The notes beneath the pieces were generated by a model that was not told the origin of the DNA, made no database searches, and saw nothing but the letters and a program-made list of their open reading frames with translations. A program made the position numbers and the translations under genes. A DNA stretch of 64,000 bases from Nanobdellota archaeon (lineage in GTDB: Archaea; Nanobdellota; Nanobdellia; Pacearchaeales; GW2011-AR1), in the NCBI GenBank assembly GCA_049324275.1, contig JBMOLG010000006.1, positions 54,056 through 118,055 on the forward strand, written 5' to 3'. Below are positions 6,614 to 60,685 of the stretch, piece after piece. Position 1 is the first letter of the stretch. Every line of letters starts with the position of its first letter.

Positions 6614-7996
6614 TTATACCAAAATCTTCTCTAAGTAATTTTTGGCAGTCTTAAAATCGGCTCTTCTATTTGAAAGGTTCATGACTTGCCCCACTAAAAA
6701 ATTTAAAGATTCCTGCTTTCCAAACTTAAAATCTTCGACGGCCCTTTGATTTTTGTTTATTACTTCTCTGCAGATTTTTTCAATTTCAACAGATGAAATT
6801 TTTGAGATATCTTTTTTTTCTTTTATTGAAAATGATTTTGGAATAAATTCATTCATAATTTGTTTTGCTTTTAATTCAGTTAAATTTCCTGCATCAATTG
6901 CTTGGATCAATTCTGCCAAATGTTCAGGCTTTATGTCAATATCTGAATCTTCTAAAGTTTTTTTATTGTAATTTAAAATTCTTAATAATTCAACTGTTAT
7001 CCATGAGATATATTTCTTTGCATCAACTAATTTTTCAAGAGCTTCAAAAAAATCCACAAGCTCTAAATTTTTTGTCAAGACATCTGCATTATATTTATCA
7101 ATCTTGTATTTATTTAACAATTTTGTCAGCTTTTCTTCAGGCATTTCAGGAAGATTTTTTCCGATTTCTTTAATTTCTTTTTCTTCTAAATTTATCCGTG
7201 GCAAATCTGGCTCTGGAATAAATCTGTAATCTTGTGCCTGCTCCTTATCCCTCATTTTAATAGTTTTTCCCTTATTCTCATCATAAGTTAAAGTTTCTCT
7301 ATCTTGTTCAAGGCCGTTCTCATGATTTTCTATCTGTCTTTGTATTTCGTATTCAATTGCATTTTTTATGTTTTCAATTGAGTTTAGGTTTTTTATTTCA
7401 ACTCTTTCCCCGTAAGTTGAAACGTTGACATCCACTTTTATTCCTGCTCCTTTTTTTATGGCTTTCATGTAGGATAATGCATGAATCAAATTCTTTAGCC
7501 AGGCTGAAACTTGATCCGCTGAATGAAAATCCGGTTCTGTTACAATTTCGATTAAAGGCAGTCCACTTCGATTATAATCAATTCCTCCTGTTAATGGATT
7601 CCAGCGTGCTGGGTCTTCTTCGAGATGCGTTTCTGTAATCTTTATTTCTTTGAATTTTCCTTTTTCTGCGCATGGAATAGAGTATGCTCCAGAAATTGTA
7701 TTTTGAAATCCTTTTGGCAAATCCGGCCATGAATAATGCTTTCTTTGCCAAACTAATCTTGTATTTATCTTGCAATTTAAAGCCAAAGAAATTAAAATCA
7801 ATTTTTTCATTGCTTCTTTGTTAGGCAACATTGGCTTTGAACCCGGCTGGCCTGTACATATCGGACATACATTGAGATTCGGCTTAATATTCATCTCGGA
7901 ATTATTTTTACATTTACAGAATAATTTCTCTTTTGTATTTAAGTAACCATGAATTTCCAATCCAATTTTTATTGGAAAATTTTTTTTGATTTCCAT
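6614..7996 (-). CDS. gatB: Asp/Glu-tRNA amidotransferase subunit B
   Basis: IGLEIHGYLNT..KLFCKC, THLEEDPAR, IPEPDLP and a YqeY-like tail (LVGQVM...RADFK) form the classic GatB pattern. Confidence 0.9.
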   Translation of the reverse strand: MEIKKNFPIKIGLEIHGYLNTKEKLFCKCKNNSEMNIKPNLNVCPICTGQPGSKPMLPNKEAMKKLILISLALNCKINTRLVWQRKHYSWPDLPKGFQNTISGAYSIPCAEKGKFKEIKITETHLEEDPARWNPLTGGIDYNRSGLPLIEIVTEPDFHSADQVSAWLKNLIHALSYMKAIKKGAGIKVDVNVSTYGERVEIKNLNSIENIKNAIEYEIQRQIENHENGLEQDRETLTYDENKGKTIKMRDKEQAQDYRFIPEPDLPRINLEEKEIKEIGKNLPEMPEEKLTKLLNKYKIDKYNADVLTKNLELVDFFEALEKLVDAKKYISWITVELLRILNYNKKTLEDSDIDIKPEHLAELIQAIDAGNLTELKAKQIMNEFIPKSFSIKEKKDISKISSVEIEKICREVINKNQRAVEDFKFGKQESLNFLVGQVMNLSNRRADFKTAKNYLEKILV

Positions 7997-8344: not shown

Positions 8345-8404
8345 AATAATTTTGATCTATATTTGAATAACAAACCTTTTATATTCACTATTTTTATAAG
8401 GTTA

Positions 8405-9685
8405 ATGAAGGAAAAAAATCTTAATCCAGGGGATAGAGTAAAATTAATTACGAAGCAAAAAGAATTTGAGGGATGGGTTTTGGAGAGTTATGATCCTAAA
8501 ATTGTTTTGATTAAATTAAATTCAGGCTATAATATCGGAATTAAAGAAAGCGACATTATTGATGTAAAAATTTTGGAGTTGAATAAAACAAAAGAAAGGA
8601 AAGTTGAATTATCAAAAAAATCTGGGTTGCCAAATATTGCGTTGATAATTACTGGGGGAACTATATCTTCGAGATTAGACCCAAAAACAGGAGGAGTAAT
8701 CTCTACAGATGAGGAAGAAATTTTGAATATTTCCCCGGAGATTTCGAAGATTTGCAACATTGCAAGAATAGAAAAACCTTTTATGAAATGGTCTGAAAAC
8801 ATGGCTTTTAAAGATTGGAAAATCTTGGCAGATGCTTGTGAAAAATTATTGAATGATAAAAACATTTCTGGGGTAGTTATAACTCATGGGACTGATTTTT
8901 TACATTACACCTCGGCAGCACTGTCTTTTTTTTTAAGAAATTTAAATAAGCCAGTAGCTTTAACTTATTCACAAAGGAGTATTGATAGGGGTTCAACTGA
9001 TGCATCCTTAAATTTATTATGCGCAGTTAAATATGCTATTTCAGATATAGCAGAAGTAGCTATTGTTGGCCATAAAGATTTGAATGATGCTTATTGTCTT
9101 GCAATGCCTGGAACAAAAGTAAGGAAAATGCATTCATCACGAAGGGATGCTTTTAAAATTATAAATGATTCATCTATTGCAGAAATTTCAAAAACAGAAT
9201 TTAAAATTTTAAAAGGGTTTAATGCCCGAAATAAAGAAAATGTTTTATCAGATTCTGTTTACAATGATAAGGTTGCATTAGTTAAAATTTATCCCGGGCA
9301 AAATCCAGACATTCTTGATTTTTATATCAAGGAAAATTATAGAGGAATCATTTTAGAGATTACTGGAATTGGTCAGGTTCCAGGAAAAGATGCCAGTGCA
9401 TATAATTGGCTTCCCAAAATTAAAAAAATAATACAAACAGGAATTACTATTTGTGCGGTTCCCCAAACTTTATATGGGAGATTAAATCCAAAGGTTTATG
9501 AAAACGGAAGAGAACTTGAAAAAACAGGAATCATATTCTTGGAAGACATGCTTCCTGAATCGGCATTTGTAAAACTTGCCTGGATTTTAGGCCACAAGGA
9601 ATGGAATAATCAAAAGATTATTAAAGATAAGATGCTGGAAAATTTTGCCAATGAAATCAATTTTAGAGTTGGATTTGAGTTTTAA
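8405..9685 (+). CDS. gatD: Glu-tRNA(Gln) amidotransferase subunit D (asparaginase-like)
   Basis: ITGGTISS, HGTD and the asparaginase-type fold length match GatD, and the N-terminal GatD-specific domain is present. ATG 8405 is preferred over TTG 8363 because ttttatat at 8377-8384 sits about 25 nt upstream. Confidence 0.85.
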   Translation: MKEKNLNPGDRVKLITKQKEFEGWVLESYDPKIVLIKLNSGYNIGIKESDIIDVKILELNKTKERKVELSKKSGLPNIALIITGGTISSRLDPKTGGVISTDEEEILNISPEISKICNIARIEKPFMKWSENMAFKDWKILADACEKLLNDKNISGVVITHGTDFLHYTSAALSFFLRNLNKPVALTYSQRSIDRGSTDASLNLLCAVKYAISDIAEVAIVGHKDLNDAYCLAMPGTKVRKMHSSRRDAFKIINDSSIAEISKTEFKILKGFNARNKENVLSDSVYNDKVALVKIYPGQNPDILDFYIKENYRGIILEITGIGQVPGKDASAYNWLPKIKKIIQTGITICAVPQTLYGRLNPKVYENGRELEKTGIIFLEDMLPESAFVKLAWILGHKEWNNQKIIKDKMLENFANEINFRVGFEF

Positions 9686-12583: not shown

Positions 12584-14014
12584 ATGATTGATTATAAAAA
12601 AATTGGATTGAAAGCAGGGCTTGAGATTCATCAGCAATTAAATACTGGAAAATTATTCTGCAATTGCCCTTCAATTTTAAGGCAGGATGAGCCTTTATTT
12701 AAAATTAAAAGAGTGCTAAATCCTGTCATCGGCGAAATGGGGAAGGTTGATGTTGCGGCAGAATATGAAAAGTCTAAAAATAAAAATTTTATTTATGAGG
12801 TTTATGATACTAACTGTCTGGTAGAATTAGATGAAGAGCCTCCTCATGAAATTAATAAGGGCGCAATGAAAATCGCAATTCAAATTGGACTGCTGCTAAA
12901 TTGCAAATTTTTTCCTGTTGCTCAGGTCATGAGAAAAAATGTTATAAATGGCTCAAATACTTCAGGATTTCAAAGAACTGTTTTGATTGGTTATGATGGA
13001 TTTATAGAAACTTCTCAAGGTAATGTGGGAATTGAGACAATCGCATTGGAGGAGGATGCTGCAAGAGAAATGTCAAGAGATGATCAAAAAAATGAAGTAA
13101 CTTTTAGATTAGATAGATTGGGTATACCCTTAGTTGAAATTTCAACCAAGCCTGACTTAAAAAGCCCTGAACAAATTAAAGAGGCTGCATTAAAAATTGG
13201 AGAAATTTTAAGGGCATGCAATGTTAAAAGAGGAATTGGCACAATAAGGCAAGACTTAAATATTTCAATTAAAGGAAGCAACAGAGTCGAAATAAAAGGA
13301 TTTCAAGAGCCTAAAATAATGATTCAAACAGTCTTAAATGAAATTGAAAGGCAGCAAAAACTTGTTGAAGGCGGAAATTCAATTCCTGAAGTTAGAAAGT
13401 CAAATCCAGATGCAACTACTAGTTTTTTAAGGCCACTTCCCGGTTCAGCGAGAATGTATCCTGAAACAGATCTGTATCTATTGCAGATATCGAAAGAATT
13501 AATTGATGATGCAAAAAAAAGCCTTCCAAAACTTAAACATGAATTGAAAGGTTACTTGAAGGAATTTGGGTTAAATGACGAATTAATCAAACTTATCCTG
13601 GAAGAAGGCAAGATTGAAGAATTTAAATCATTGTTAAATGTTATAGATAACCCTAATTTAATTGCTAAATCTCTTGTAATCTTCCCTAAGGAAATTTCTT
13701 CAAAAGAAAAGAAGCCAATAGAGGAAATAAACAATATATTGAATTCGGATGTAATTGAATCAATTTTGACTGAAATAAATAAAAGTCTTTCTGAAGATGA
13801 TGTAAGGATTGTGATGCAGGAAATTGCAGTTGGAAAGCCATTAGCTCAGGCGTTGCAGAGAGAAAGAATTAATATCAGCGAAGAAATTGATAAGTTGATA
13901 AAAGAAAAACCGGGATTAAGCCCCAATGCTTACATGGGATTATTAATGGCTAAATTCAAAGGAAAAGTTTCCGGCAAAGAAATCATGGAGGAAATCAATA
14001 AAAGAACAAAATGA
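12584..14014 (+). CDS. gatE: Glu-tRNA(Gln) amidotransferase subunit E, short form
   Basis: GLKAGLEIHQQLNTGKLFCNCPS, SGFQRT, ALEEDAARE, RPLPGSARMYPETDL and a YqeY-like tail are present. At 476 aa it is shorter than the roughly 600+ aa I recall for GatE. Confidence 0.85.
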   Translation: MIDYKKIGLKAGLEIHQQLNTGKLFCNCPSILRQDEPLFKIKRVLNPVIGEMGKVDVAAEYEKSKNKNFIYEVYDTNCLVELDEEPPHEINKGAMKIAIQIGLLLNCKFFPVAQVMRKNVINGSNTSGFQRTVLIGYDGFIETSQGNVGIETIALEEDAAREMSRDDQKNEVTFRLDRLGIPLVEISTKPDLKSPEQIKEAALKIGEILRACNVKRGIGTIRQDLNISIKGSNRVEIKGFQEPKIMIQTVLNEIERQQKLVEGGNSIPEVRKSNPDATTSFLRPLPGSARMYPETDLYLLQISKELIDDAKKSLPKLKHELKGYLKEFGLNDELIKLILEEGKIEEFKSLLNVIDNPNLIAKSLVIFPKEISSKEKKPIEEINNILNSDVIESILTEINKSLSEDDVRIVMQEIAVGKPLAQALQRERINISEEIDKLIKEKPGLSPNAYMGLLMAKFKGKVSGKEIMEEINKRTK

Positions 14015-18440: not shown

Positions 18441-20320
<1,880 letters not shown>

Positions 20321-52527: not shown

Positions 52528-53153
52528 TTAAACTAATTTGCTTTGATTTTGATGGCACTTTAGTTGATTCTTATGATTTCTATTTTAACATTTTCAGTAA
52601 AATTTTAAAGAAGCATAATTACAAATTTGATAAAAATAAGTTGAAGATTCTTCTTGGAGAAAAAAGTTCATTTATCTTGCAAAATCTTGGCGTCGAGGAA
52701 ACTGAAATACCAATTTTAAATAAAGAAATTTTTAACGAAGCATTAACAAATAATCACAAACTTAAATTTTGTGATTCAATCACATCATTAAAGAAATTAT
52801 CTAATGACTGTAAATTAATCATTGTTTCTAATACAAATTATAAAATTATTGAAAAGATTATGCAATCTTTTAAGATAAAACAATTATTTGACAATTTTTA
52901 TTTTAATGGAAAATATTCTAAATCTTATTCTATAAAAATGATTTCTAAAAATTTTAACATTAAGCCATCTAGTATAGTTTATATTGGGGACAGATTTTCA
53001 GATATTATTGAAGCTAAAAAAGCTAGGTGTTGGTCTATAGCAATACATAATAAACTGAGCTGGTCTTCTTTAAATGAAATTAAGAAACAAAAACCAGATT
53101 TTATCATAAATAGTTTTGATGAGCTTGAAAAAGTTTTAAATATTATAAGTTAA
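52524..53153 (+). CDS. HAD-superfamily hydrolase
   Basis: LICFDFDGTLVDS (motif I), IVSNT and GDRFSDI are present. ATGA overlap with the upstream gene. Confidence 0.8.
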   Translation: MIKLICFDFDGTLVDSYDFYFNIFSKILKKHNYKFDKNKLKILLGEKSSFILQNLGVEETEIPILNKEIFNEALTNNHKLKFCDSITSLKKLSNDCKLIIVSNTNYKIIEKIMQSFKIKQLFDNFYFNGKYSKSYSIKMISKNFNIKPSSIVYIGDRFSDIIEAKKARCWSIAIHNKLSWSSLNEIKKQKPDFIINSFDELEKVLNIIS

Positions 53154-54361
53154 ATTTTCAATTCAATAATATCCGGCAGGTTGAAATATGATCTCAATCC
53201 TTTAAAATAATCTGAAGATGAAAGATATTTATTTTTAATTGCAGACGCCTCAGATTCTGACAAGCCTACTTTGCCTCCTGATACTGCAACACTTTCCCCA
53301 TCTAATATATCTTTAACAATACTTCTATGTTTTTCATTGGATATTTGATTCAAATCCTTAATTAGTATTGACTCTAACTCTTTGATTTGAACTACATCAA
53401 GAGAATTATATTGACCATCAAATTCCTCTTCCGGTACATCGTCTTCATACTTCTCTGTATTGTATATGCTATCTATTAATTCGATTGGATTTGTATCATA
53501 ATTTTTTCCCAATACTTCACAATAAAACTCCTCGAATTTAGAATCTGGAAATCCTTTTTCAACCCAAAATTTTTTGCATTCTTCTTTTGTTGGCTCTTTT
53601 TCGTTTTTATTATAAAAATCTTCAATAAATTTGTTCATTTTTTTAACGCGATTTCGCGTTACTCTTCCTAAGACATCTTCTTCTCGGGGAGCGTCAAGCA
53701 TTGCTCCCCTTATTCTAAATTCTATATAAGTCTTGAATTTAGTATTTTTTTTATGATCAAAGTTATCTACACCCTCTAAAAGCCCAATATTTCCGAGAAT
53801 TCTAAGGTCTTCTATATCCATTATGCCATGAAAATGTTTAGACATACGAAATGAAATATATCTCACTAGAAATTGTGATTCTAAAATTAACTCCTCTCTT
53901 AATAATGTATTTTTTGTCTTTGAATATCTGACTGCCAATTCGTTCATGAGTGAGCTTTCGTTTTCCTTATTAATTTCTGAATTGTCAAAAACGCAAAAAT
54001 GGATATCTGAAGCAGCAATACACAAATCTTTTTTTCCTCTTCCATCTATTACCTGCTCCTTTACAATTTTTTCTCCTTGATCATTATTAAAATTAAATAA
54101 ATCACAAAAGTCTATTCCTATAATTTCTGAAACCGGGTATGCTGAAATATATTCTAATGAACTTTTAAAATTGTATTTCCTTATAATATGATTCAATAAA
54201 AAGAATCCAAAATAATTTCCTGATTTTGTAAAAAAACGATTATATGGATCTTTTTTCAGATTTTCTAATTCTTTGCTTCCAAATCCCAAATTTACAAGAT
54301 CTTTTTCAGAATAAGAATCAAACAACGGCTTGTTTTTAATTTCACGATATAATTTCTCCAT
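53150..54361 (-). CDS. sigma-70-family (FliA/sigma-28-like) protein with a roughly 165-aa unknown N-terminal extension
   Basis: Region 2 reads DIEDLRILGNIGLLEGVDNFDHKKNTKFKTYIEFRIRGAMLD; the RIRGAMLD octamer is identical to E. coli FliA as I recall it. A region-3-like segment RVTRNRVKKMNKFIEDF...EPTKEE follows. The region 4 HTH reads LNQISNEKHRSIV...GGKVGLSESEASAIKNKYL. Confidence 0.7.
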   Translation of the reverse strand: MEKLYREIKNKPLFDSYSEKDLVNLGFGSKELENLKKDPYNRFFTKSGNYFGFFLLNHIIRKYNFKSSLEYISAYPVSEIIGIDFCDLFNFNNDQGEKIVKEQVIDGRGKKDLCIAASDIHFCVFDNSEINKENESSLMNELAVRYSKTKNTLLREELILESQFLVRYISFRMSKHFHGIMDIEDLRILGNIGLLEGVDNFDHKKNTKFKTYIEFRIRGAMLDAPREEDVLGRVTRNRVKKMNKFIEDFYNKNEKEPTKEECKKFWVEKGFPDSKFEEFYCEVLGKNYDTNPIELIDSIYNTEKYEDDVPEEEFDGQYNSLDVVQIKELESILIKDLNQISNEKHRSIVKDILDGESVAVSGGKVGLSESEASAIKNKYLSSSDYFKGLRSYFNLPDIIELKI

Positions 54362-56417
54362 TTCCTCTGCTTAATTGAAGTGCTTTAATAAAATCCCTAT
54401 ATCTAAAATGCATATAATTTTCTTCAATTCTCTTTTCAATATTGATTGACTTTTTGCTGGCATAACTTAAAACCCTTCCGACATCTAATGCTGTCAATCC
54501 TTCAGAATTTTCAGACAGTTCATTCATTGTATAAAATGAATCGCCCATCTCATCGATGCTTTTTTTAATTTCTGCATAAGCATTTTTTATTTGATGTTTA
54601 TCAATTCTCCTTTCAATACTAATTGAATTCTTTCTTGCATAATCCAAAGTTTGCGATATATCTAATGCTGTCAATCCTTCAGAATTTTCAGACAGTTCAT
54701 TCATTGTATAAAATGAATCGCCCATCTCATCAAGAATATTTTTAATCTTATCTCGATTGGTATTAATTATCTGCAATATTTTCCTGCTGCAACTGCTTTC
54801 TACTACATGAAATATGCCTGTTTTCGAAATATTATAAATAAAAGGCTTAAGATTCAGTGAAAGTAATGATGTATTAATATTATTAATTTTAAATTCAGAC
54901 TTCTCATTAATCAAATCATCAAGCCAAATAAATCCTTTGAATTGTTCATTAACTTTTATAACATCTCTGCCGTATATTTCATCATCCTGATGTGGGAGAA
55001 TTCCGAGGCTTATTAACTTGTTATAAAATTGATAGCTTCTTTCAGCAGGCAATTCAGAAATATCATAAATTCTTAATGGATTTATTTCACCTCTTCCAAT
55101 TTCTTTTGTATTCACTCCTTGGATAATTCTCCATATTTTAGCTTTTTTTTCTAAAAATGAATTTAAATCAGTTGTTCTATTTAAAGCTAAAATTTCTACT
55201 GTTGCCTCCATCATTGCACGCTCATATTTCTGTTCTGTTGTCATCGGATTTATTCTTAATTGAGGGGCCTTTAAATTAAGATAAATCCTGTTTTTTTCAG
55301 AATCATATCTTCCAATTCCTTCAGTTAATAAATCTTTAATGCACTCAATCTCAGTTTTTCTTGTTATACCTTCAATTCCAGCTTTTTCTAGTTTGCCTTT
55401 TATTTTTTTGGCAAATACTGGAATCTTTTTTTCAACTTTGCTTCTGGTCTCTCCGTGCGAAACTTCTTCAACGCATGAAGCTATCTTCGTTGTAGCATCT
55501 TTTAATAACTTTTCTAATTCAATAACACCTGGATCATCTTCCCTGAACCTCCCCCTGTCAAATAATATTGCTCTTTCTAATCCATCGGCATTTACAATTC
55601 CAATTAATCTACGAGAAAAGATTAATTTCCCTCTGGAAAATAAACGCGCTAAATATGCTCTGGGGTCCCCTATTGCTCTTTTATTTACATAAACGTAAAT
55701 TCCTGCATGCCTATCTACATTCGGGGTCACATAAAATTTTGCATTTACTTTGCCCGCATGCTCTAAATCTTTTTCAACTTTGAATTTTTTTGAGGCTTCA
55801 ATTAATTTGGGCTTAATTTTTTCATCATTAATAAATATTTCAAAATCAGGCAAAATGGGAAGGTCCCATTGAAACTGATTTTTTAACTCTTCCAATGAAA
55901 ATTGTTTTTCACTTTGAAACCTCAATCCTTTCATTAAAATTTCAGTTCCGCATCCGGAATTATCTATACTATACTCTTCTCCCAAAATTTCTTTATTTTG
56001 GCTTAATTGACCATCAAATTTTTCTTTTATTATTGTTTTTATTCCATCTTTTACAGTAACCATTTCATATTCATTACAAAGATAATTCAATAATATTGTA
56101 GCTACTCCAAATTTTCCTATTCTTACTCTTCCTCTTGGACTTATGGGCTCTTTCATTTTAGGGCTGTCTCCCAATCTAAAGAAATCTTCAAGGCCTGAAC
56201 CTTTTTTCATTCCAGAACCATTATCTTTTATAGAAAGCATATTTTTTTCTTCGTTATAAGTTAAATCGACTCTTGTAGCATCTGCATCATATGCATTCAC
56301 AACAAGCTCTTCTATTGCAGGGATTGCCCCTGTTATTACAAGTTTCGATATAAGTTCGGGAACATTCCCTCCGAGCATTCTCGATAATTTTATCTTTGAT
56401 TCAGAGTTATTATCCAT
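54342..56417 (-). CDS. GHKL (HATPase_c_3/MORC-like) ATPase with two C-terminal 59-aa HTH-like repeats
   Basis: The Bergerat motifs are EELVVNAYDA (motif I), KDNGSGM (motif II) and IGKFGVA (motif III). The C-terminus carries a tandem repeat containing DEMGDSFYTMNELSENSEGLTALD twice. It overlaps the downstream gene by 20 nt. Confidence 0.7.
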   Translation of the reverse strand: MDNNSESKIKLSRMLGGNVPELISKLVITGAIPAIEELVVNAYDADATRVDLTYNEEKNMLSIKDNGSGMKKGSGLEDFFRLGDSPKMKEPISPRGRVRIGKFGVATILLNYLCNEYEMVTVKDGIKTIIKEKFDGQLSQNKEILGEEYSIDNSGCGTEILMKGLRFQSEKQFSLEELKNQFQWDLPILPDFEIFINDEKIKPKLIEASKKFKVEKDLEHAGKVNAKFYVTPNVDRHAGIYVYVNKRAIGDPRAYLARLFSRGKLIFSRRLIGIVNADGLERAILFDRGRFREDDPGVIELEKLLKDATTKIASCVEEVSHGETRSKVEKKIPVFAKKIKGKLEKAGIEGITRKTEIECIKDLLTEGIGRYDSEKNRIYLNLKAPQLRINPMTTEQKYERAMMEATVEILALNRTTDLNSFLEKKAKIWRIIQGVNTKEIGRGEINPLRIYDISELPAERSYQFYNKLISLGILPHQDDEIYGRDVIKVNEQFKGFIWLDDLINEKSEFKINNINTSLLSLNLKPFIYNISKTGIFHVVESSCSRKILQIINTNRDKIKNILDEMGDSFYTMNELSENSEGLTALDISQTLDYARKNSISIERRIDKHQIKNAYAEIKKSIDEMGDSFYTMNELSENSEGLTALDVGRVLSYASKKSINIEKRIEENYMHFRYRDFIKALQLSRGNGEIIS
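54483..54731. repeat. tandem intragenic repeat, period 177 bp, with a 72-bp perfectly identical core
   Basis: Positions 54483-54554 and 54660-54731 are identical base for base (checked by eye). The flanking repeat sequence has diverged to roughly 50% protein identity. Confidence 0.9.
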
Positions 56418-56438: not shown

Positions 56439-56450
56439 TTTTTAAAAATT
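56439..56450 (-). promoter_or_regulatory. TATA-like box (aatttttaaaaa on the minus strand) about 28 nt upstream of the GHKL ATPase ATG
   Basis: Its position matches the pattern seen at housekeeping genes. Confidence 0.3.
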
Positions 56451-56519: not shown

Positions 56520-59159
56520 ATGAAAAAGAGAGGAATGTTAATTTTAATCTTGATGCTTTGCTTAATCAGTTATTCTAATGCACAGATAACTGTTGGAAAT
56601 ATAAGCTTAAATCGAGTTTATTATCCCTATGAAAATATTTCGGGGGAAATAAATCTATCGATTAAATCTGAACCTATTAATCAATATTTGAACACTAACC
56701 TTAACCAAAATTTATCCTTAATTAATTTTTTTGAATTAAATGATGCAAATTATAACTGTATCCCATCTGATTGTTCGGTTAATTATAATTTAAAGGAAAG
56801 AGCTGACGAATTTCAATTGCTGGGCGATAAAACAATAGGATTTTCTCTCAAAGGAAAAAATATACAGATACAGGGAATAAGCTTTGACATGCAGAGCAAT
56901 TTTTCAAAATCACAAACAATTCCATTGAAGATAAGATTTTTTGAAAATTTAATTTGGGAATTTACAAATTCTTCAGGCGAATATTCTGCTTCAAAGAATT
57001 GGGGGTGCTATAATGATTCTCTTGGGAAGCCTGAATTTTATATTCGACAGTATTACTGTGAAAAATTTGAAATTTCAAGAACTAACTCCATAAAAGCAGG
57101 GGCAAGGCTTGAAGTGAATGGCACTGACAAATTGAAATTGCTTATCAGAGATTGGACTGGACAGAATTTAGGAGATTGCGAATTCCTCCCTGCAACTGAG
57201 AATTCCTGCATTTTTAATCGGGAAGGAGGCTATAGCGCAGGGATTTATTATGTATGCATTCTTCCATCTAATACGGAAAACGTCGCGAATATTAAGCATA
57301 AAATTTATTCGGAAAATGTCAATAAAAATTGCGGGTGGCCGAGTCTTCCTTCAACTGAAAATAGCACGAGGGATTTTGGAATATTTTTAACCACTGAATT
57401 GTTTTCCTCAGCATCTTTAACTAACATAAACAATGGAGTTGTTAAAAATTTAGAATCTTCTGCAAATTCTTTTATAAGAGGAAAATTCGACGGAGATTGT
57501 TCAAATGGCTGTATATTTCCTATATTATTTCAAGGAATTCCTCAAGAAATAGAAATTTCAAATGTCAGACTAGCTTATCAGGATAATGAAGGTTCCAAAG
57601 AACTTAATGACTTTTTTAATTTAGAGGTTAAGCCTGCAGATGTGGATTTTTCAGGCATATTAAATCTGAATTTGAGTGGATTTAACGTTCAGTCTTCTGG
57701 TGATAAAAATCTGCAGATAAAATTAGGAGAAACAATTTTATTTGATAATAACATTTCTGTTTTGGATGCTCCAATAATTCAGGGAATTTATCCTTTGAAC
57801 CCGCCTGCAGGTGTGCCGGTTATATTTACTGCAAAATTAATCAGCAAAAAAAATATCTCTGCTTATTATTGGGATTTTGGCGACGGGATTAAACAAACTG
57901 CATATATCAATTCAATCAATCATACATATAAAGAAGCAGGATCTTTTATTATCCTCTTAAACGTGACGGATTCGTCAGGAATAATGTCTTCAAAAAGTTT
58001 TGAAATATTTACTGGAACTCCTGCAGAGATTGTTGATATTATTCTAAAGATTAAACAAGATAAGCTGAAAAAGACCGAAGAAAGCATGAATAAGTTTTCT
58101 TCAGAGTGGTATTTTAATGGACTTCAGAATGTTGTAGCTCTTAATTATTATAAAGATGAATTAAAAAAAATTGAGGATGGAAAAGTGAATGCTTCAGAAG
58201 AGGAAAATTTAAAATTTGTTACAACTCTGCAAAATTTGAAATTTCCGTCTTTAATTTTTTCCAAGGGCACTTCAACAACCCCTCTTTCGACAGATCTTGA
58301 AGATATTGATGCAAGTCAAGTTGCATTGATTTCCGAGGAAGAAATTGAAAATCCTGATGCATATTCAGAACAAATAAGTAAATGGCAAAATGAAAATTAT
58401 AATTCAAGCTTAATACAAAATCAGAAGATTATGCTTCTTAATGAAGATAAAGAAGATGTTGTGATTGATATTTATGAATTAGACATTGTATCTAATTCAG
58501 ATGAAGATTCTTATTTTTTGATAAGCAAACCAAGAGAAGAACTGTTCTTTGAAAATGAAGATTCTGCTGTGGAAGGGCAGGAAGGCTATACCGTTGTATC
58601 ATTAAAGCCAAATGAGAGAAAAAAATTAAATTTTTACAAGAAAAACGACGAGGAATTGATATTCTTTGCTTCTCCCAAATTAAGCTCTCTTCAAGAGCCG
58701 ATTGAAATTAAAGTTGAGGCATGCAATTTCAATAAAATATGCGAAGAGGATTTAGATGAAAATTCCAAAAATTGTCAAAATGACTGCGGAGGCTTTTTTA
58801 GCATAAGGCTGATATTTCCAATTTTGGTGATATTATTTGGCCTGATAATTTATACTATTTTGCAGGTTTGGTACAAAAACAAATACGAAACATTTTTATT
58901 TAAGGATAGATCCTATTTATTTAATTTGCTGATGTTTATTGATAATGCAAGAATTAGGGGAATAGAAGAGGGGGAAATAAAAGAGCAATTGAAAATCCAA
59001 AAATGGTCTGGTGAGCAAATATCTTATGCATTAAAAAAATCTCTTGGAAAAAGGACTGGCATGTATGAAATCATACCTATAGAGAAAATTTTCGCCTGGT
59101 TTCGGATTAAAAAAGCCAGACAAAACATTAATAAACCACAAATCCAAGGAAATTATTAG
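56520..59159 (+). CDS. large secreted, C-terminally anchored surface protein with a PKD domain
   Basis: It has a signal peptide, the PKD signature YYWDFGDG...HTY...G.F...L.VTDS.G, many N-x-S/T sites, a Cys-rich stalk, a TM helix and a short cytoplasmic tail. Confidence 0.75.
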   Translation: MKKRGMLILILMLCLISYSNAQITVGNISLNRVYYPYENISGEINLSIKSEPINQYLNTNLNQNLSLINFFELNDANYNCIPSDCSVNYNLKERADEFQLLGDKTIGFSLKGKNIQIQGISFDMQSNFSKSQTIPLKIRFFENLIWEFTNSSGEYSASKNWGCYNDSLGKPEFYIRQYYCEKFEISRTNSIKAGARLEVNGTDKLKLLIRDWTGQNLGDCEFLPATENSCIFNREGGYSAGIYYVCILPSNTENVANIKHKIYSENVNKNCGWPSLPSTENSTRDFGIFLTTELFSSASLTNINNGVVKNLESSANSFIRGKFDGDCSNGCIFPILFQGIPQEIEISNVRLAYQDNEGSKELNDFFNLEVKPADVDFSGILNLNLSGFNVQSSGDKNLQIKLGETILFDNNISVLDAPIIQGIYPLNPPAGVPVIFTAKLISKKNISAYYWDFGDGIKQTAYINSINHTYKEAGSFIILLNVTDSSGIMSSKSFEIFTGTPAEIVDIILKIKQDKLKKTEESMNKFSSEWYFNGLQNVVALNYYKDELKKIEDGKVNASEEENLKFVTTLQNLKFPSLIFSKGTSTTPLSTDLEDIDASQVALISEEEIENPDAYSEQISKWQNENYNSSLIQNQKIMLLNEDKEDVVIDIYELDIVSNSDEDSYFLISKPREELFFENEDSAVEGQEGYTVVSLKPNERKKLNFYKKNDEELIFFASPKLSSLQEPIEIKVEACNFNKICEEDLDENSKNCQNDCGGFFSIRLIFPILVILFGLIIYTILQVWYKNKYETFLFKDRSYLFNLLMFIDNARIRGIEEGEIKEQLKIQKWSGEQISYALKKSLGKRTGMYEIIPIEKIFAWFRIKKARQNINKPQIQGNY

Positions 59160-59161
59160 AG

Positions 59162-59806
59162 ATGGTAATAAAAGTTATTAAAAACTTTGCAAAAAGGGTG
59201 TTTTCAGGAATTTTTAAAGCTAAGGGACAAATTAAATTAGGATTTTATGGCCCGCCTAACGCTGGAAAAACGAGCCTTGCTAACAGGATATGTATGGACT
59301 GGCTTGGAGAGGAGCTTGGAAGTGTAAGCAAAATACCTCATGAAACTCGTGAAATTCAATTTAAGGAACATGTTGTGATTGAAAAAGATGGCAAAAAGGT
59401 TGAACTAAAATTGGTTGATACTCCTGGCATTGCAACTAAGATTGATTTTGAAGATTTCTTGAAATTTGGAATGAATAAAAAAGATGCTCAGATAAGAGCA
59501 AAAGAAGCAACACAAGGAATTGTTGAAGCTATAAAATGGGTAGAAGATATGGATGCAGTGATAGTTGTCCTTGATTCTTCAACTAATCCTTATTCACAAG
59601 TTAATATAACGATCATTGGAAATCTTGTTGCCCGAAAAATACCTGTATTAATTGTTGCGAATAAAATAGATCTCAAAAAAACAGATATTAAAAGAATAAA
59701 AGCTGCATTTCCCGAATATGAAGTTGTCGGAATTTCAGCAAAAACAGGGAAAAATATGGAGGAATTTTATGAATCCTTGTTCGAGCTTGTTAAAAAAGTA
59801 AGGTGA
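59162..59806 (+). CDS. small GTP-binding protein
   Basis: G1 GPPNAGKTS, G3 DTPG, G4 NKID and G5 SAK are present. It starts 2 nt after the surface-protein stop. Confidence 0.8.
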   Translation: MVIKVIKNFAKRVFSGIFKAKGQIKLGFYGPPNAGKTSLANRICMDWLGEELGSVSKIPHETREIQFKEHVVIEKDGKKVELKLVDTPGIATKIDFEDFLKFGMNKKDAQIRAKEATQGIVEAIKWVEDMDAVIVVLDSSTNPYSQVNITIIGNLVARKIPVLIVANKIDLKKTDIKRIKAAFPEYEVVGISAKTGKNMEEFYESLFELVKKVR

Positions 59807-59810
59807 TAAG

Positions 59811-60221
59811 ATGGTGAAAAATAATTCAAGAACATCGGAAGAAGATGATTTAGTAATCTACTTTATGCCATTTAGTGAAATAGAGGGCGAAAGTTCAATT
59901 GGTAAAATTAAAAAGCTTTTAGGATTAGTGCTTCAAAATAAAGTCATAATTTTGCAGGGAAAACTTAGCCCGGTTGAAGAATCAAGATTAATTGAAAATA
60001 CTATGGCTTTGATTGGAAACATAAGAGATTTTAAAGGAATTGAAATTGCAAGCATTTCAAAATATAACGAATATCAAAATTTGTTTGACAAAATAAGGCA
60101 TAATATTGCAAAAATTCTTATTGGAGACCATGATATTATGACCATAATCGGGCCTGCAAACATTGTAAAGGCTATCAAAAGAAATCCAAAAAAGATTGAA
60201 TTATTGTTAAAAAGATCTTAA
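59811..60221 (+). CDS. DUF2073-like archaeal protein
   Basis: Size and position between a GTPase and a Zn-ribbon gene match an archaeal conserved trio I recall. Sequence identity to DUF2073 is not verified. Confidence 0.4.
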   Translation: MVKNNSRTSEEDDLVIYFMPFSEIEGESSIGKIKKLLGLVLQNKVIILQGKLSPVEESRLIENTMALIGNIRDFKGIEIASISKYNEYQNLFDKIRHNIAKILIGDHDIMTIIGPANIVKAIKRNPKKIELLLKRS

Positions 60222-60292
60222 TTAGATAAATATTTAACATAGAATACTTAATTTTATATATAGTCAAAATTTAAATTAAAAATTTACAGAAA

Positions 60293-60685
60293 ATGCCACA
60301 CCAATGCATACACTGCTCGAGAATAATTGAGGCGGGAAGCCATGAAATCTTAGAAGGATGCTCAATTTGCGGAGGAAAATTCTTTTTTTATGTCAGAGAT
60401 GAAGATATGGCCCGGCTTAAAGAGAAAAAATCAAATGAAGCTGTTAAAACTATTGAATTAAATCCTATTGAAAAAAAACAAGTTGAAAAGGAGATTAGGG
60501 ATATATTGAATATAGAAGATGAAGCAGAGCCAGTCATTCTCGATTTAGAATCAGTAAAGGTTTTGGGACCTGGGAAATTTGAAATTGATCTTGTGAGATT
60601 AATGAATAAAAAACCCATAGTTTTCAAGCTTGAAGAAGGGAAATATGTCATTGATTTGGAATCGGGGTTTGATAGGAAAAATTAA
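60293..60685 (+). CDS. Zn-ribbon protein (DUF2072/COG3364-like)
   Basis: The N-terminus has CIHC...CSICGGKFFFY (CxxC...CxxC). Confidence 0.5.
   Translation: MPHQCIHCSRIIEAGSHEILEGCSICGGKFFFYVRDEDMARLKEKKSNEAVKTIELNPIEKKQVEKEIRDILNIEDEAEPVILDLESVKVLGPGKFEIDLVRLMNKKPIVFKLEEGKYVIDLESGFDRKN

Follow-up and report, generated by a model that had tools for sequence, protein, structure and literature searches.

The window analysed here is a 64,000-nucleotide (nt) stretch of a Nanobdellota archaeon genome (assembly GCA_049324275.1, contig JBMOLG010000006.1, positions 54,056 to 118,055 of the forward strand). On its minus strand lie two genes, one for a GHKL ATPase of the MORC/MutL type and, directly behind it, one for a sigma-70-like protein; NCBI already names their products 'ATP-binding protein' and 'sigma-70 family RNA polymerase sigma factor'. 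We find that a GHKL ATPase and a sigma-like protein with a family-specific N-terminal domain form a conserved two-gene module in a subset of DPANN archaea. Both open reading frames (ORFs), and the 20-nt overlap between the stop of the GHKL gene and the start of the sigma-like gene, are exactly as a first-pass annotation made from the DNA alone had stated (Table 1). As read from the sequence, the overlap implies translational coupling of the two genes. The domain assignments of both proteins agree with Pfam, NCBIfam and structure comparisons, and the two families have no common domain (hhalign probability 3%).

Table 1. Features of the GHKL/sigma-like gene pair, in window coordinates.
Feature	Positions	Strand	Description	Basis
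GHKL ATPase gene	54342-56417	-	691 amino acids (aa), MORC/MutL-type, C-terminal helix-turn-helix (HTH)-like domains	ORF list
Sigma-like gene	53150-54361	-	403 aa	ORF list
Gene overlap	54342-54361	-	20 nt, GHKL stop / sigma-like start	
TATA-like box	56439-56448	-	TTTTTAAAAA, 24-33 nt before the GHKL start codon	
GHKL ATP-binding and S5-like transducer domain	55542-56417	-	aa 1-292	alignment, AlphaFold2 (AF2), Foldseek
Predicted 50-residue helix of the GHKL protein	55380-55532	-	aa 296-346	AF2 model
C-terminal region of the GHKL protein	54345-55085	-	aa 445-691, HTH-like units and terminal winged-helix-like module	
Tandem duplication in the GHKL gene	54412-54765	-	177-nt (59-codon) C-terminal module	
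N-terminal domain of the sigma-like protein	53987-54361	-	aa 1-125, family-specific, alpha/beta	alignment and predicted model
Sigma region 1.2/2.1-2.4	53666-53956	-	aa 136-232, most conserved part of the family, holds RIRGAMLD	
Sigma region 3.0-3.1 and 3.2-like linker	53405-53665	-	aa 233-288 and aa 289-319	
Sigma region 4	53222-53404	-	aa 320-380, recognition helix SESEASA	
C-terminal tail of the sigma-like protein	53153-53221	-	conserved, follows region 4, consensus FFxRTRxYLG..V..L.L	

The GHKL protein contains the Bergerat motifs ELVVNAYDA, DNGSGM and GKFGVA, and the first-pass annotation had placed it nearer the HATPase_c_3/MORC/MutL type than the histidine kinases. Pfam scores agree with that placement. 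HATPase_c_3 matched at 48.7 bits against a cutoff of 25 (E 1e-12), while the histidine-kinase-type HATPase_c remained at 18.9 bits, under its cutoff of 26.4 (E 0.0022). Across 20 aligned homologues the residues E37, N41, D44, D65, G67, G69, G101, G104 and T158, which belong to motifs I-IV, are invariant or nearly so. The AF2 model (predicted local distance difference test score, pLDDT, 81) consists of the GHKL and transducer domains, the long helix, a small alpha/beta region, the HTH-like units and the winged-helix-like module; in this model the 50-residue helix is a probable coiled-coil or dimerisation arm. Foldseek aligned the first ~400 residues with MORC2 (9cdj, TMt 0.51, root-mean-square deviation 5.1 Å over ~400 columns), and also returned the MutL N-terminal domain (9n2k, TMt 0.60) and the N-M segment of the Hsp90 relative TRAP1 (4z1i, TMt 0.57). 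Sequence searches reach MutL, MORC2 and MORC3 at about 1e-7. The best curated match, the N-terminus of the BbrUII/HgiDII restriction enzymes (3e-17), and phrog_6203, a family of unknown function (1.8e-21), cover the ATPase module only, and the C-terminal half of the protein matches no Pfam family. A word-indexed search returned about 20 full-length relatives with 28-42% identity; more distant relatives are fusions to restriction-enzyme or Ymh/Abi-type domains.

The two 59-aa repeats described at the C-terminus of the GHKL protein are real and arise from the tandem duplication in Table 1. Within it, the 72-nt stretches 54483-54554 and 54660-54731 are 100% identical, and the remainder of the duplicated module is ~78% identical. 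Such mosaic identity indicates, from the sequence pattern, recent partial gene conversion or a mosaic duplication. The duplication is confined to the window orthologue, as the module is present in single copy in 19 homologues.

The sigma-like protein had been read as carrying sigma-70 regions 2, 3 and 4, and profile alignments do find a complete FliA/WhiG-type sigma2-sigma3-sigma4 arrangement. Pfam Sigma70_r2 matched aa 165-227 at 32.2 bits (cutoff 24, E 9e-8). Sigma70_r4 is silent on the window copy and fires on its orthologues, so that of the Pfam families named for the pair in the first-pass annotation, Sigma70_r2 and HATPase_c_3 exceed their cutoffs in the window proteins themselves, and Sigma70_r4 does so in the orthologues. 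Region 4 is nonetheless covered by the WhiG and FliA alignments, which extend to aa 378-380, and by the family profile, which aligns with WhiG sigma4. The NCBIfam FliA/WhiG models align with residues ~129-380 at 1e-24, and a single-sequence alignment to the Streptomyces WhiG chain 6pfv spans residues 139-378. The family profile, which matches from sigma2 to sigma4, scores 2.7e-57 against WhiG and 1.6e-39 to 3.7e-37 against FliA (E. coli FliA 1.6e-39), with primary sigma factors ranking behind at about 1e-29. The protein is under every curated cutoff of the FliA/WhiG equivalog models; TIGR02479, the FliA/WhiG subfamily model, gives 87.3 bits against a curated cutoff of 189.6. The octamer RIRGAMLD, which the first-pass annotation had linked to E. 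coli FliA, is indeed identical in the E. coli FliA chain 6pmi_F.

A word-indexed homologue search for the sigma-like protein returned nothing close. An exhaustive search of 1.84 billion representatives yielded 13 relatives below 1e-30 and ~20 full-length relatives of 383-422 aa, which align end to end. Beyond the family, the closest relatives are FliA/WhiG proteins of bacteria, with ~30% identity. Constraint within the family is tightest in regions 2.2, 2.3-2.4 and 4.2, where mean pairwise identity is 0.42, 0.38 and 0.36, respectively, compared with 0.27 in the N-terminal domain and 0.16 in the linker. The 3.2-like linker is acidic, poorly conserved and of low confidence in the predicted model. 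The window copy deviates from its family at three nearly invariant positions (A197G, R371E and Q374A).

The N-terminal ~125-130 aa have no sequence match in Pfam or the PDB, in agreement with the first-pass annotation, which had been unable to assign this part of the protein. Conservation in this domain is complete at H121 and nearly so at G26, N57, R61 and D112; judging from conservation, the polar set H121, N57, R61 and D112 could form a ligand, metal or interface site. The C-terminal tail that follows region 4 is not present in bacterial FliA/WhiG.

To survey the neighbourhood of the pair, loci were scanned with hidden Markov models of both families; the scan covered the fetched loci together with GTDB species genomes, JGI metagenomes and IMG/VR. 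A GHKL gene followed by a sigma-like gene on the same strand, overlapping or abutting and set between unrelated flanks, occurs at about 17 distinct loci (the window, L001, L003, L004, L006, L009, L010, L012, L014, L090, L094, L096, L098, L101, L107, L017 and L198). The operonic coupling proposed from the single overlap is thus a conserved feature of ~17 independent archaeal loci. Almost all of the host assemblies are Woesearchaeota/Nanoarchaeota, and flanking genes at other loci include those for TopoVI, aEF1A, RIO1 and TFIIS. Five of the first seven GHKL relatives inspected had a sigma-type gene (343-405 aa) directly downstream on the same strand, and the homologous junctions consist of overlaps of 17, 23, 32, 14 and 26 nt or of 1-nt gaps. 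Lookups from the sigma side, starting from P0411 and the divergent P0256, also place the sigma-like gene behind a GHKL gene. Members of the two families are just 21-45% identical, yet their ORFs are intact and their motifs conserved.

The association is asymmetric. Eight GHKL family members with enough downstream sequence are unpaired (L007, L008, L015, L100, L102, L104, L106 and L111), and no sigma-like gene adjoins any of about 70 bacterial GHKL loci that are more distantly related. All sigma-like proteins with the N-terminal domain and of known context, on the other hand, are paired (P0001, P0239, P0241, P0246, P0333, P0411, the L101 protein, and P0256 with its paralogue); P0243 and P0245 are probably paired as well, with the GHKL proteins P0126 and P0124, whose contigs have the same lengths as theirs. 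Because eight GHKL proteins occur without a sigma-like gene and this sigma subfamily always occurs with a GHKL gene, we regard the sigma-like protein as a dependent add-on subunit. Pairwise distances in the two families are correlated (Mantel r = 0.82 for 13 complete pairs; 0 of 5000 permutations). In a rough neighbour-joining tree of the ATPases 13 paired members form one crown clade and the unpaired members fall in more basal clades; the nearest outgroup GHKL proteins, of ~500 aa, are encoded by solo genes in uninformative contexts. The motif FRED(D/H)PGV (residues ~290-301), at the base of the long helix, is better conserved in the sigma-paired GHKL proteins, as are a few C-terminal positions. 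Since the paired set is largely one clade, phylogeny confounds this contrast and we treat it only as a lead.

Several loci carry expanded forms of the module. Two tandem GHKL paralogues precede a single sigma-like gene in L017 (143-5306) and L107 (389-5427); the second GHKL gene of L017 appears to be split or frameshifted. In L198 (3002-7381) one GHKL gene is followed by two tandem sigma-like paralogues, which are 40% identical, both possess the N-terminal domain and have RpoD-like motifs (TWWVRK; TRERIRQ) rather than FliA-like ones. Other sigma-like forms in DPANN archaea have no GHKL neighbour. One is a 252-aa protein (L092, 1762-2520, GCA_964479755.1) that lies in an archaeal context and lacks the N-terminal domain, a 131-aa ORF just upstream being unlike that domain. 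Another is an annotated sigma-70 factor of 1550 aa (P0252; L093, 5001-9653) from the Nanoarchaeota metagenome-assembled genome (MAG) GCA_030695685.1, with three sigma-like segments at residues ~474-735, 1032-1081 and 1296-1523.

The GTDB scan found the full-length family in ~8 species genomes; of these MAGs, seven bear a Woesearchaeota label and one a Methanosarcinales label. One paired locus, L014 (CAYNLP010000012.1), lies in a MAG labelled 'uncultured Methanosarcinales archaeon'; a binning error could account for this, as could transfer between a methanogen host and its DPANN symbiont. The sole full-length match in IMG/VR is an unpaired GHKL gene (L104/L174, UViG_3300005512_005684, 331 kb). 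That contig is viral by the IMG/VR classification, and the same sequence is a 74-kb JGI metagenome contig. A tblastn search against annotated phages gave no match. The locus of another unpaired GHKL paralogue, L007 (1-3757) from a related genome, has a block in common with window positions 56520-60682, which encodes a PKD-domain protein, a GTPase (68% identical), OapB and OapC. The paralogue, 31% identical to the window protein, lies near this block but at another position, a comparison that suggests a variable spot beside a conserved segment.

Finding a sigma homologue among archaeal genes is not new in itself, because sigma-70-class homologues (fam00359) have been described in DPANN archaea, with a prevalence in Woesearchaeota and mis-binning ruled out (Castelle et al. 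2021, Front Microbiol, PMC8204110), and because the NCBI annotation of the window gene exists. Its authors detected no anti-sigma factor and regarded the mode of control as unclear. The window protein is of the same kind and belongs to the same lineages, but its subfamily differs in the additional N-terminal domain and C-terminal tail and in its obligate linkage to a GHKL gene. We found no report of the GHKL-sigma coupling, of the N-terminal domain and tail, or of the expanded variants in the searchable literature, subscription journals being outside its coverage.

FliA (sigma28) and WhiG, the closest sequence relatives of the family, are each controlled by a partner encoded nearby, the anti-sigma factors FlgM and RsiG. 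The window protein differs from both in its N-terminal domain and tail, in having a GHKL ATPase as its partner instead of FlgM or RsiG, and in a host that, unlike theirs, presumably has no bacterial RNA polymerase. The first-pass annotation had drawn an analogy to SpoIIAB and RsbW, Bergerat-fold proteins that are functionally coupled to the group-3 sigma factors sigmaF and sigmaB. The likeness in coupling is genuine, but it does not amount to homology at the family level: SpoIIAB and RsbW are single-domain histidine-kinase-type proteins of ~145 aa with a STAS antagonist, whereas the window protein is a 691-aa multidomain MORC/MutL/Hsp90-like ATPase with transducer, coiled coil and HTH units. 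Pfam found no STAS domain among the window neighbours, and together with the HATPase_c score below cutoff and the multidomain architecture this led us to reject an anti-sigma kinase of the SpoIIAB/RsbW type. CapK-CapS (PMC13373217), a derived SpoIIAB/RsbW-like pair with a repurposed partner, is a different, histidine-kinase-type system and was rejected as a relative of the window pair.

The only known system that we found to pair a sigma-70-family protein with a MutL-like GHKL ATPase is MzaA-MzaB, part of the Mza (mzaABCDE) anti-phage defence, which has been validated (Gao et al. 2020, as cited in PMC9523054). MzaA-MzaB is, by analogy, a bacterial precedent for a sigma-like protein beside a MutL-like GHKL protein. 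The window proteins score 22.6 bits against the MzaA cutoff of 800 and 20.9 bits against the MzaB cutoff of 850 (NCBIfam NF041931 and NF041932), and the PADLOC match of the sigma-like protein to MzaA covers only 50 residues of region 2. MzaA is a ~700-aa RpoD-like protein with a Sigma70_ner domain, unlike the 403-aa window protein. The Mza genes are bacterial and in the order mzaA-mzaB, while the archaeal pair has the GHKL gene first, and neither Pfam nor PADLOC found MzaC, MzaD (Z1) or MzaE (AIPR) among the window neighbours. Membership in Mza is ruled out by the scores, the gene order and the missing Z1/AIPR partners. Prokaryotic MORC/paraMORC proteins and GHKL restriction enzymes (Iyer, Abhiman & Aravind 2008, PMC2292703) have the same GHKL and S5 module as the window ATPase, but the latter has no nuclease, helicase or methylase partner, its C-terminal half is unrelated, and its partner is sigma-like. 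Membership in BbrUII/HgiDII was rejected at 62.4 bits against a cutoff of 550, with only profile positions 25-213 of 659 aligned. MutL proper was rejected as well, as its match is restricted to aa 27-72 (29.8 bits against 180) and the C-terminal half is without a Pfam match.

The one-sidedness of the association tells us most about the mechanism. Together with the DNA-binding domains of the ATPase itself, it leads us to propose an ATP-gated clamp that recruited a sigma-like subunit. The pair would thus be one ATP-gated DNA-binding machine, a MORC-like clamp with the sigma-like protein as its recognition or regulatory subunit, a tentative reading to which we assign a probability of about 0.42. 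The GHKL ATPase, probably a dimer held by the long helix and the C-terminal region, would close its N-terminal gate upon ATP binding and contribute its own HTH and winged-helix domains. The sigma-like subunit, which would be made stoichiometrically alongside it through translational coupling, may dock via its N-terminal domain and/or its C-terminal tail, and its sigma2 and sigma4 surfaces would recognise particular DNA and might also open it. By binding and hydrolysing ATP, the GHKL protein would govern loading of the complex at its DNA targets or its release from them. Rather than starting transcription in general, the complex would most likely act on particular DNA, by local repression, by silencing or by sensing, in a role that is accessory, regulatory or of the conflict type. 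The sporadic distribution, variable location, paralogue expansion and lineage-specific duplication are more in keeping with a diversifying accessory system than with core transcription. Established are the identities of the domains, the intact catalytic motifs, the gene coupling, the co-inheritance, the one-way dependence, and the accessory distribution with its paralogue expansions; we infer the physical complex, its DNA targeting and its biological output. If the sigma-like protein is the targeting subunit of a MORC-like clamp, sigma domains would have been put to a new use, for which MzaA-MzaB may offer a parallel.

Several observations weigh against such a clamp. Nuclease and other effector domains are missing from both proteins and from every conserved neighbour, and the IMG/VR scan did not find the paired module on viral contigs. 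Many paired or GHKL loci lie amid housekeeping genes (for example L090 and L008), and just three adjoin mobile or defence genes, namely an integrase with an MmeI-type restriction-modification gene, type IV secretion system-like genes with an MT-A70 methylase, and VapBC. The recognition helix in region 4.2 of the window copy reads SESEASA where the family has SESRxSQ, so that the canonical R and Q are lost. A full sigma architecture, including the core-binding region 2.2 and the acidic 3.2-like linker, would seem to exceed what plain DNA targeting needs, and the binding of the two proteins to each other and to DNA enters the proposal by inference.

The retention of sigma2, sigma3 and sigma4 as a whole, with region 2.2 the most conserved, speaks for an ATP-driven switch of the sigma/anti-sigma kind. 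This main rival of the clamp we consider possible but doubtful. Here the GHKL protein would sequester or remodel the sigma-like protein and free it upon a signal, for instance with sigma2 and sigma4 bound to its coiled coil, much as WhiG is bound by RsiG; once freed, the protein might act as an ordinary DNA-binding regulator or dock on the archaeal RNA polymerase at its clamp coiled-coil. A hallmark of sigma/anti-sigma pairs is that their genes are adjacent and translationally coupled, the family is nearest to WhiG and FliA, of which WhiG, the closest relative with a solved structure, is under a coiled-coil anti-sigma factor (6pfv complex), and the 50-residue helix of the GHKL protein has the paired-specific motif at its base. 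Such a switch would also fill the anti-sigma gap left by the 2021 survey (PMC8204110). However, the GHKL protein is no single-domain kinase like SpoIIAB or RsbW, being large, MORC/MutL-like and equipped with its own DNA-binding domains, and the finding that one third of the GHKL family lacks a sigma-like gene, while the sigma subfamily never lacks a GHKL gene, is the reverse of what is expected for a mere regulator. Archaea moreover initiate transcription with TBP and TFB. No sigma28-type promoter enrichment was seen in the window either: the composite motif TAAA-N15-GCCGATAA has 0 matches against 0.65 expected, and GCCGATAA with up to one mismatch has 34 matches against 32.6 expected. A stronger form, in which the sigma-like protein engages the polymerase clamp coiled-coil, which is universally conserved and is contacted by sigma region 2.2 in bacteria, as an alternative initiation or promoter-melting factor and the GHKL protein is its ATP-dependent anti-sigma factor or loader, seems to us improbable. 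Were there an ATP-driven anti-sigma and a factor touching the archaeal polymerase, the view of the boundary between bacterial and archaeal transcription would change; in the polymerase-engaging form, a bacterial-style sigma cycle would have been grafted onto TBP/TFB-dependent transcription.

Dedicated immunity against viruses or plasmids, with the pair as a minimal archaeal relative of the MzaA-MzaB core whose effector is unrecognised or acts by silencing, we judge unlikely, though less so than polymerase engagement. The three loci beside mobile or defence genes, the sporadic distribution and the expanded paralogues would suit it, and the sole defence-type matches in PADLOC and NCBIfam are to MzaA, MzaB or GHKL-type restriction enzymes. 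The Mza scores are, however, far under their cutoffs, the gene order is the opposite, and there are no Z1/AIPR partners, no defence match among the window neighbours and no nuclease domain, while most locus contexts are housekeeping. At the far end of the scale, the pair might be non-functional or an artefact, whether a mis-assembled bacterial fragment, a decaying relic of horizontal gene transfer, or a canonical sigma factor for a bacterial RNA polymerase. The one point in its favour, the ~30% identity of the nearest outside relatives, which are bacterial FliA/WhiG, is countered by recurrence of the same pair in ~17 independent assemblies and archaeal contexts, by ORFs and motifs that stay intact among members 21-45% identical, and by an N-terminal domain and tail that bacterial sigma factors do not have. 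The GC content of the pair also tracks its flanks, at 0.305 against 0.304 in the window and with equal values in every other host genome over a range of 0.30 to 0.44, which marks the genes as long-standing residents. An assembly chimera at this locus, raised as a possibility by the first-pass annotation, is excluded by this uniform composition and the independent assemblies, as is a recent transfer, and we consider the artefact or relic explanation effectively refuted.

Sigma-70 homologues in DPANN archaea, which use TBP and TFB, have been an unexplained oddity since 2021. For one subfamily it is now shown that the gene, in every known context, lies directly behind, and co-evolves with, that of a MORC/MutL-type GHKL ATPase, that its product has a hitherto unrecognised N-terminal domain and a C-terminal tail, and that the pair also exists in forms with two GHKL or two sigma-like genes. 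A vague annotation thereby becomes a two-protein system that is open to co-expression, modelling and assay, and the 'bacterial' sigma factors of archaea gain a concrete, testable partner.

Turning to the surroundings of the pair, the TATA-like sequence proposed upstream of the GHKL gene is there. TTTTTAAAAA is palindromic and lies inside a 102-nt divergent intergenic region. In the window, TTTTTAAA occurs 33 times where 70 occurrences are expected from dinucleotide shuffles, a depletion by about half, so a TATA box at TTTTTAAAAA is plausible, although a promoter role for this candidate is unproven. The genes at 47.5-56.4 kb had been grouped as an NTPase/signalling island. Of the neighbour annotations, Pfam confirmed the HAD protein, placed the MoxR-like one below threshold and did not support the VWA-like and cyclase-like ones. 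None of these genes is part of a unit with the pair, because no other window neighbour recurs at any other locus and there is no conserved third gene; the island was accordingly abandoned. The whole 64-kb window contains no tRNA gene and no Rfam family at the gathering threshold. Its archaeal gene context holds up: GatD and GatE are accompanied by a CCA enzyme of the archaeal kind and a TrpRS of archaeal type. The window also encodes a GroEL of bacterial type (817 bits) and a GatB, along with GatD and GatE (18713-20320; 6614-7996; 8363-9685; 12584-14014), and the presence of the bacterial-type GroEL fits the bacterial-type chaperonins reported for DPANN archaea.

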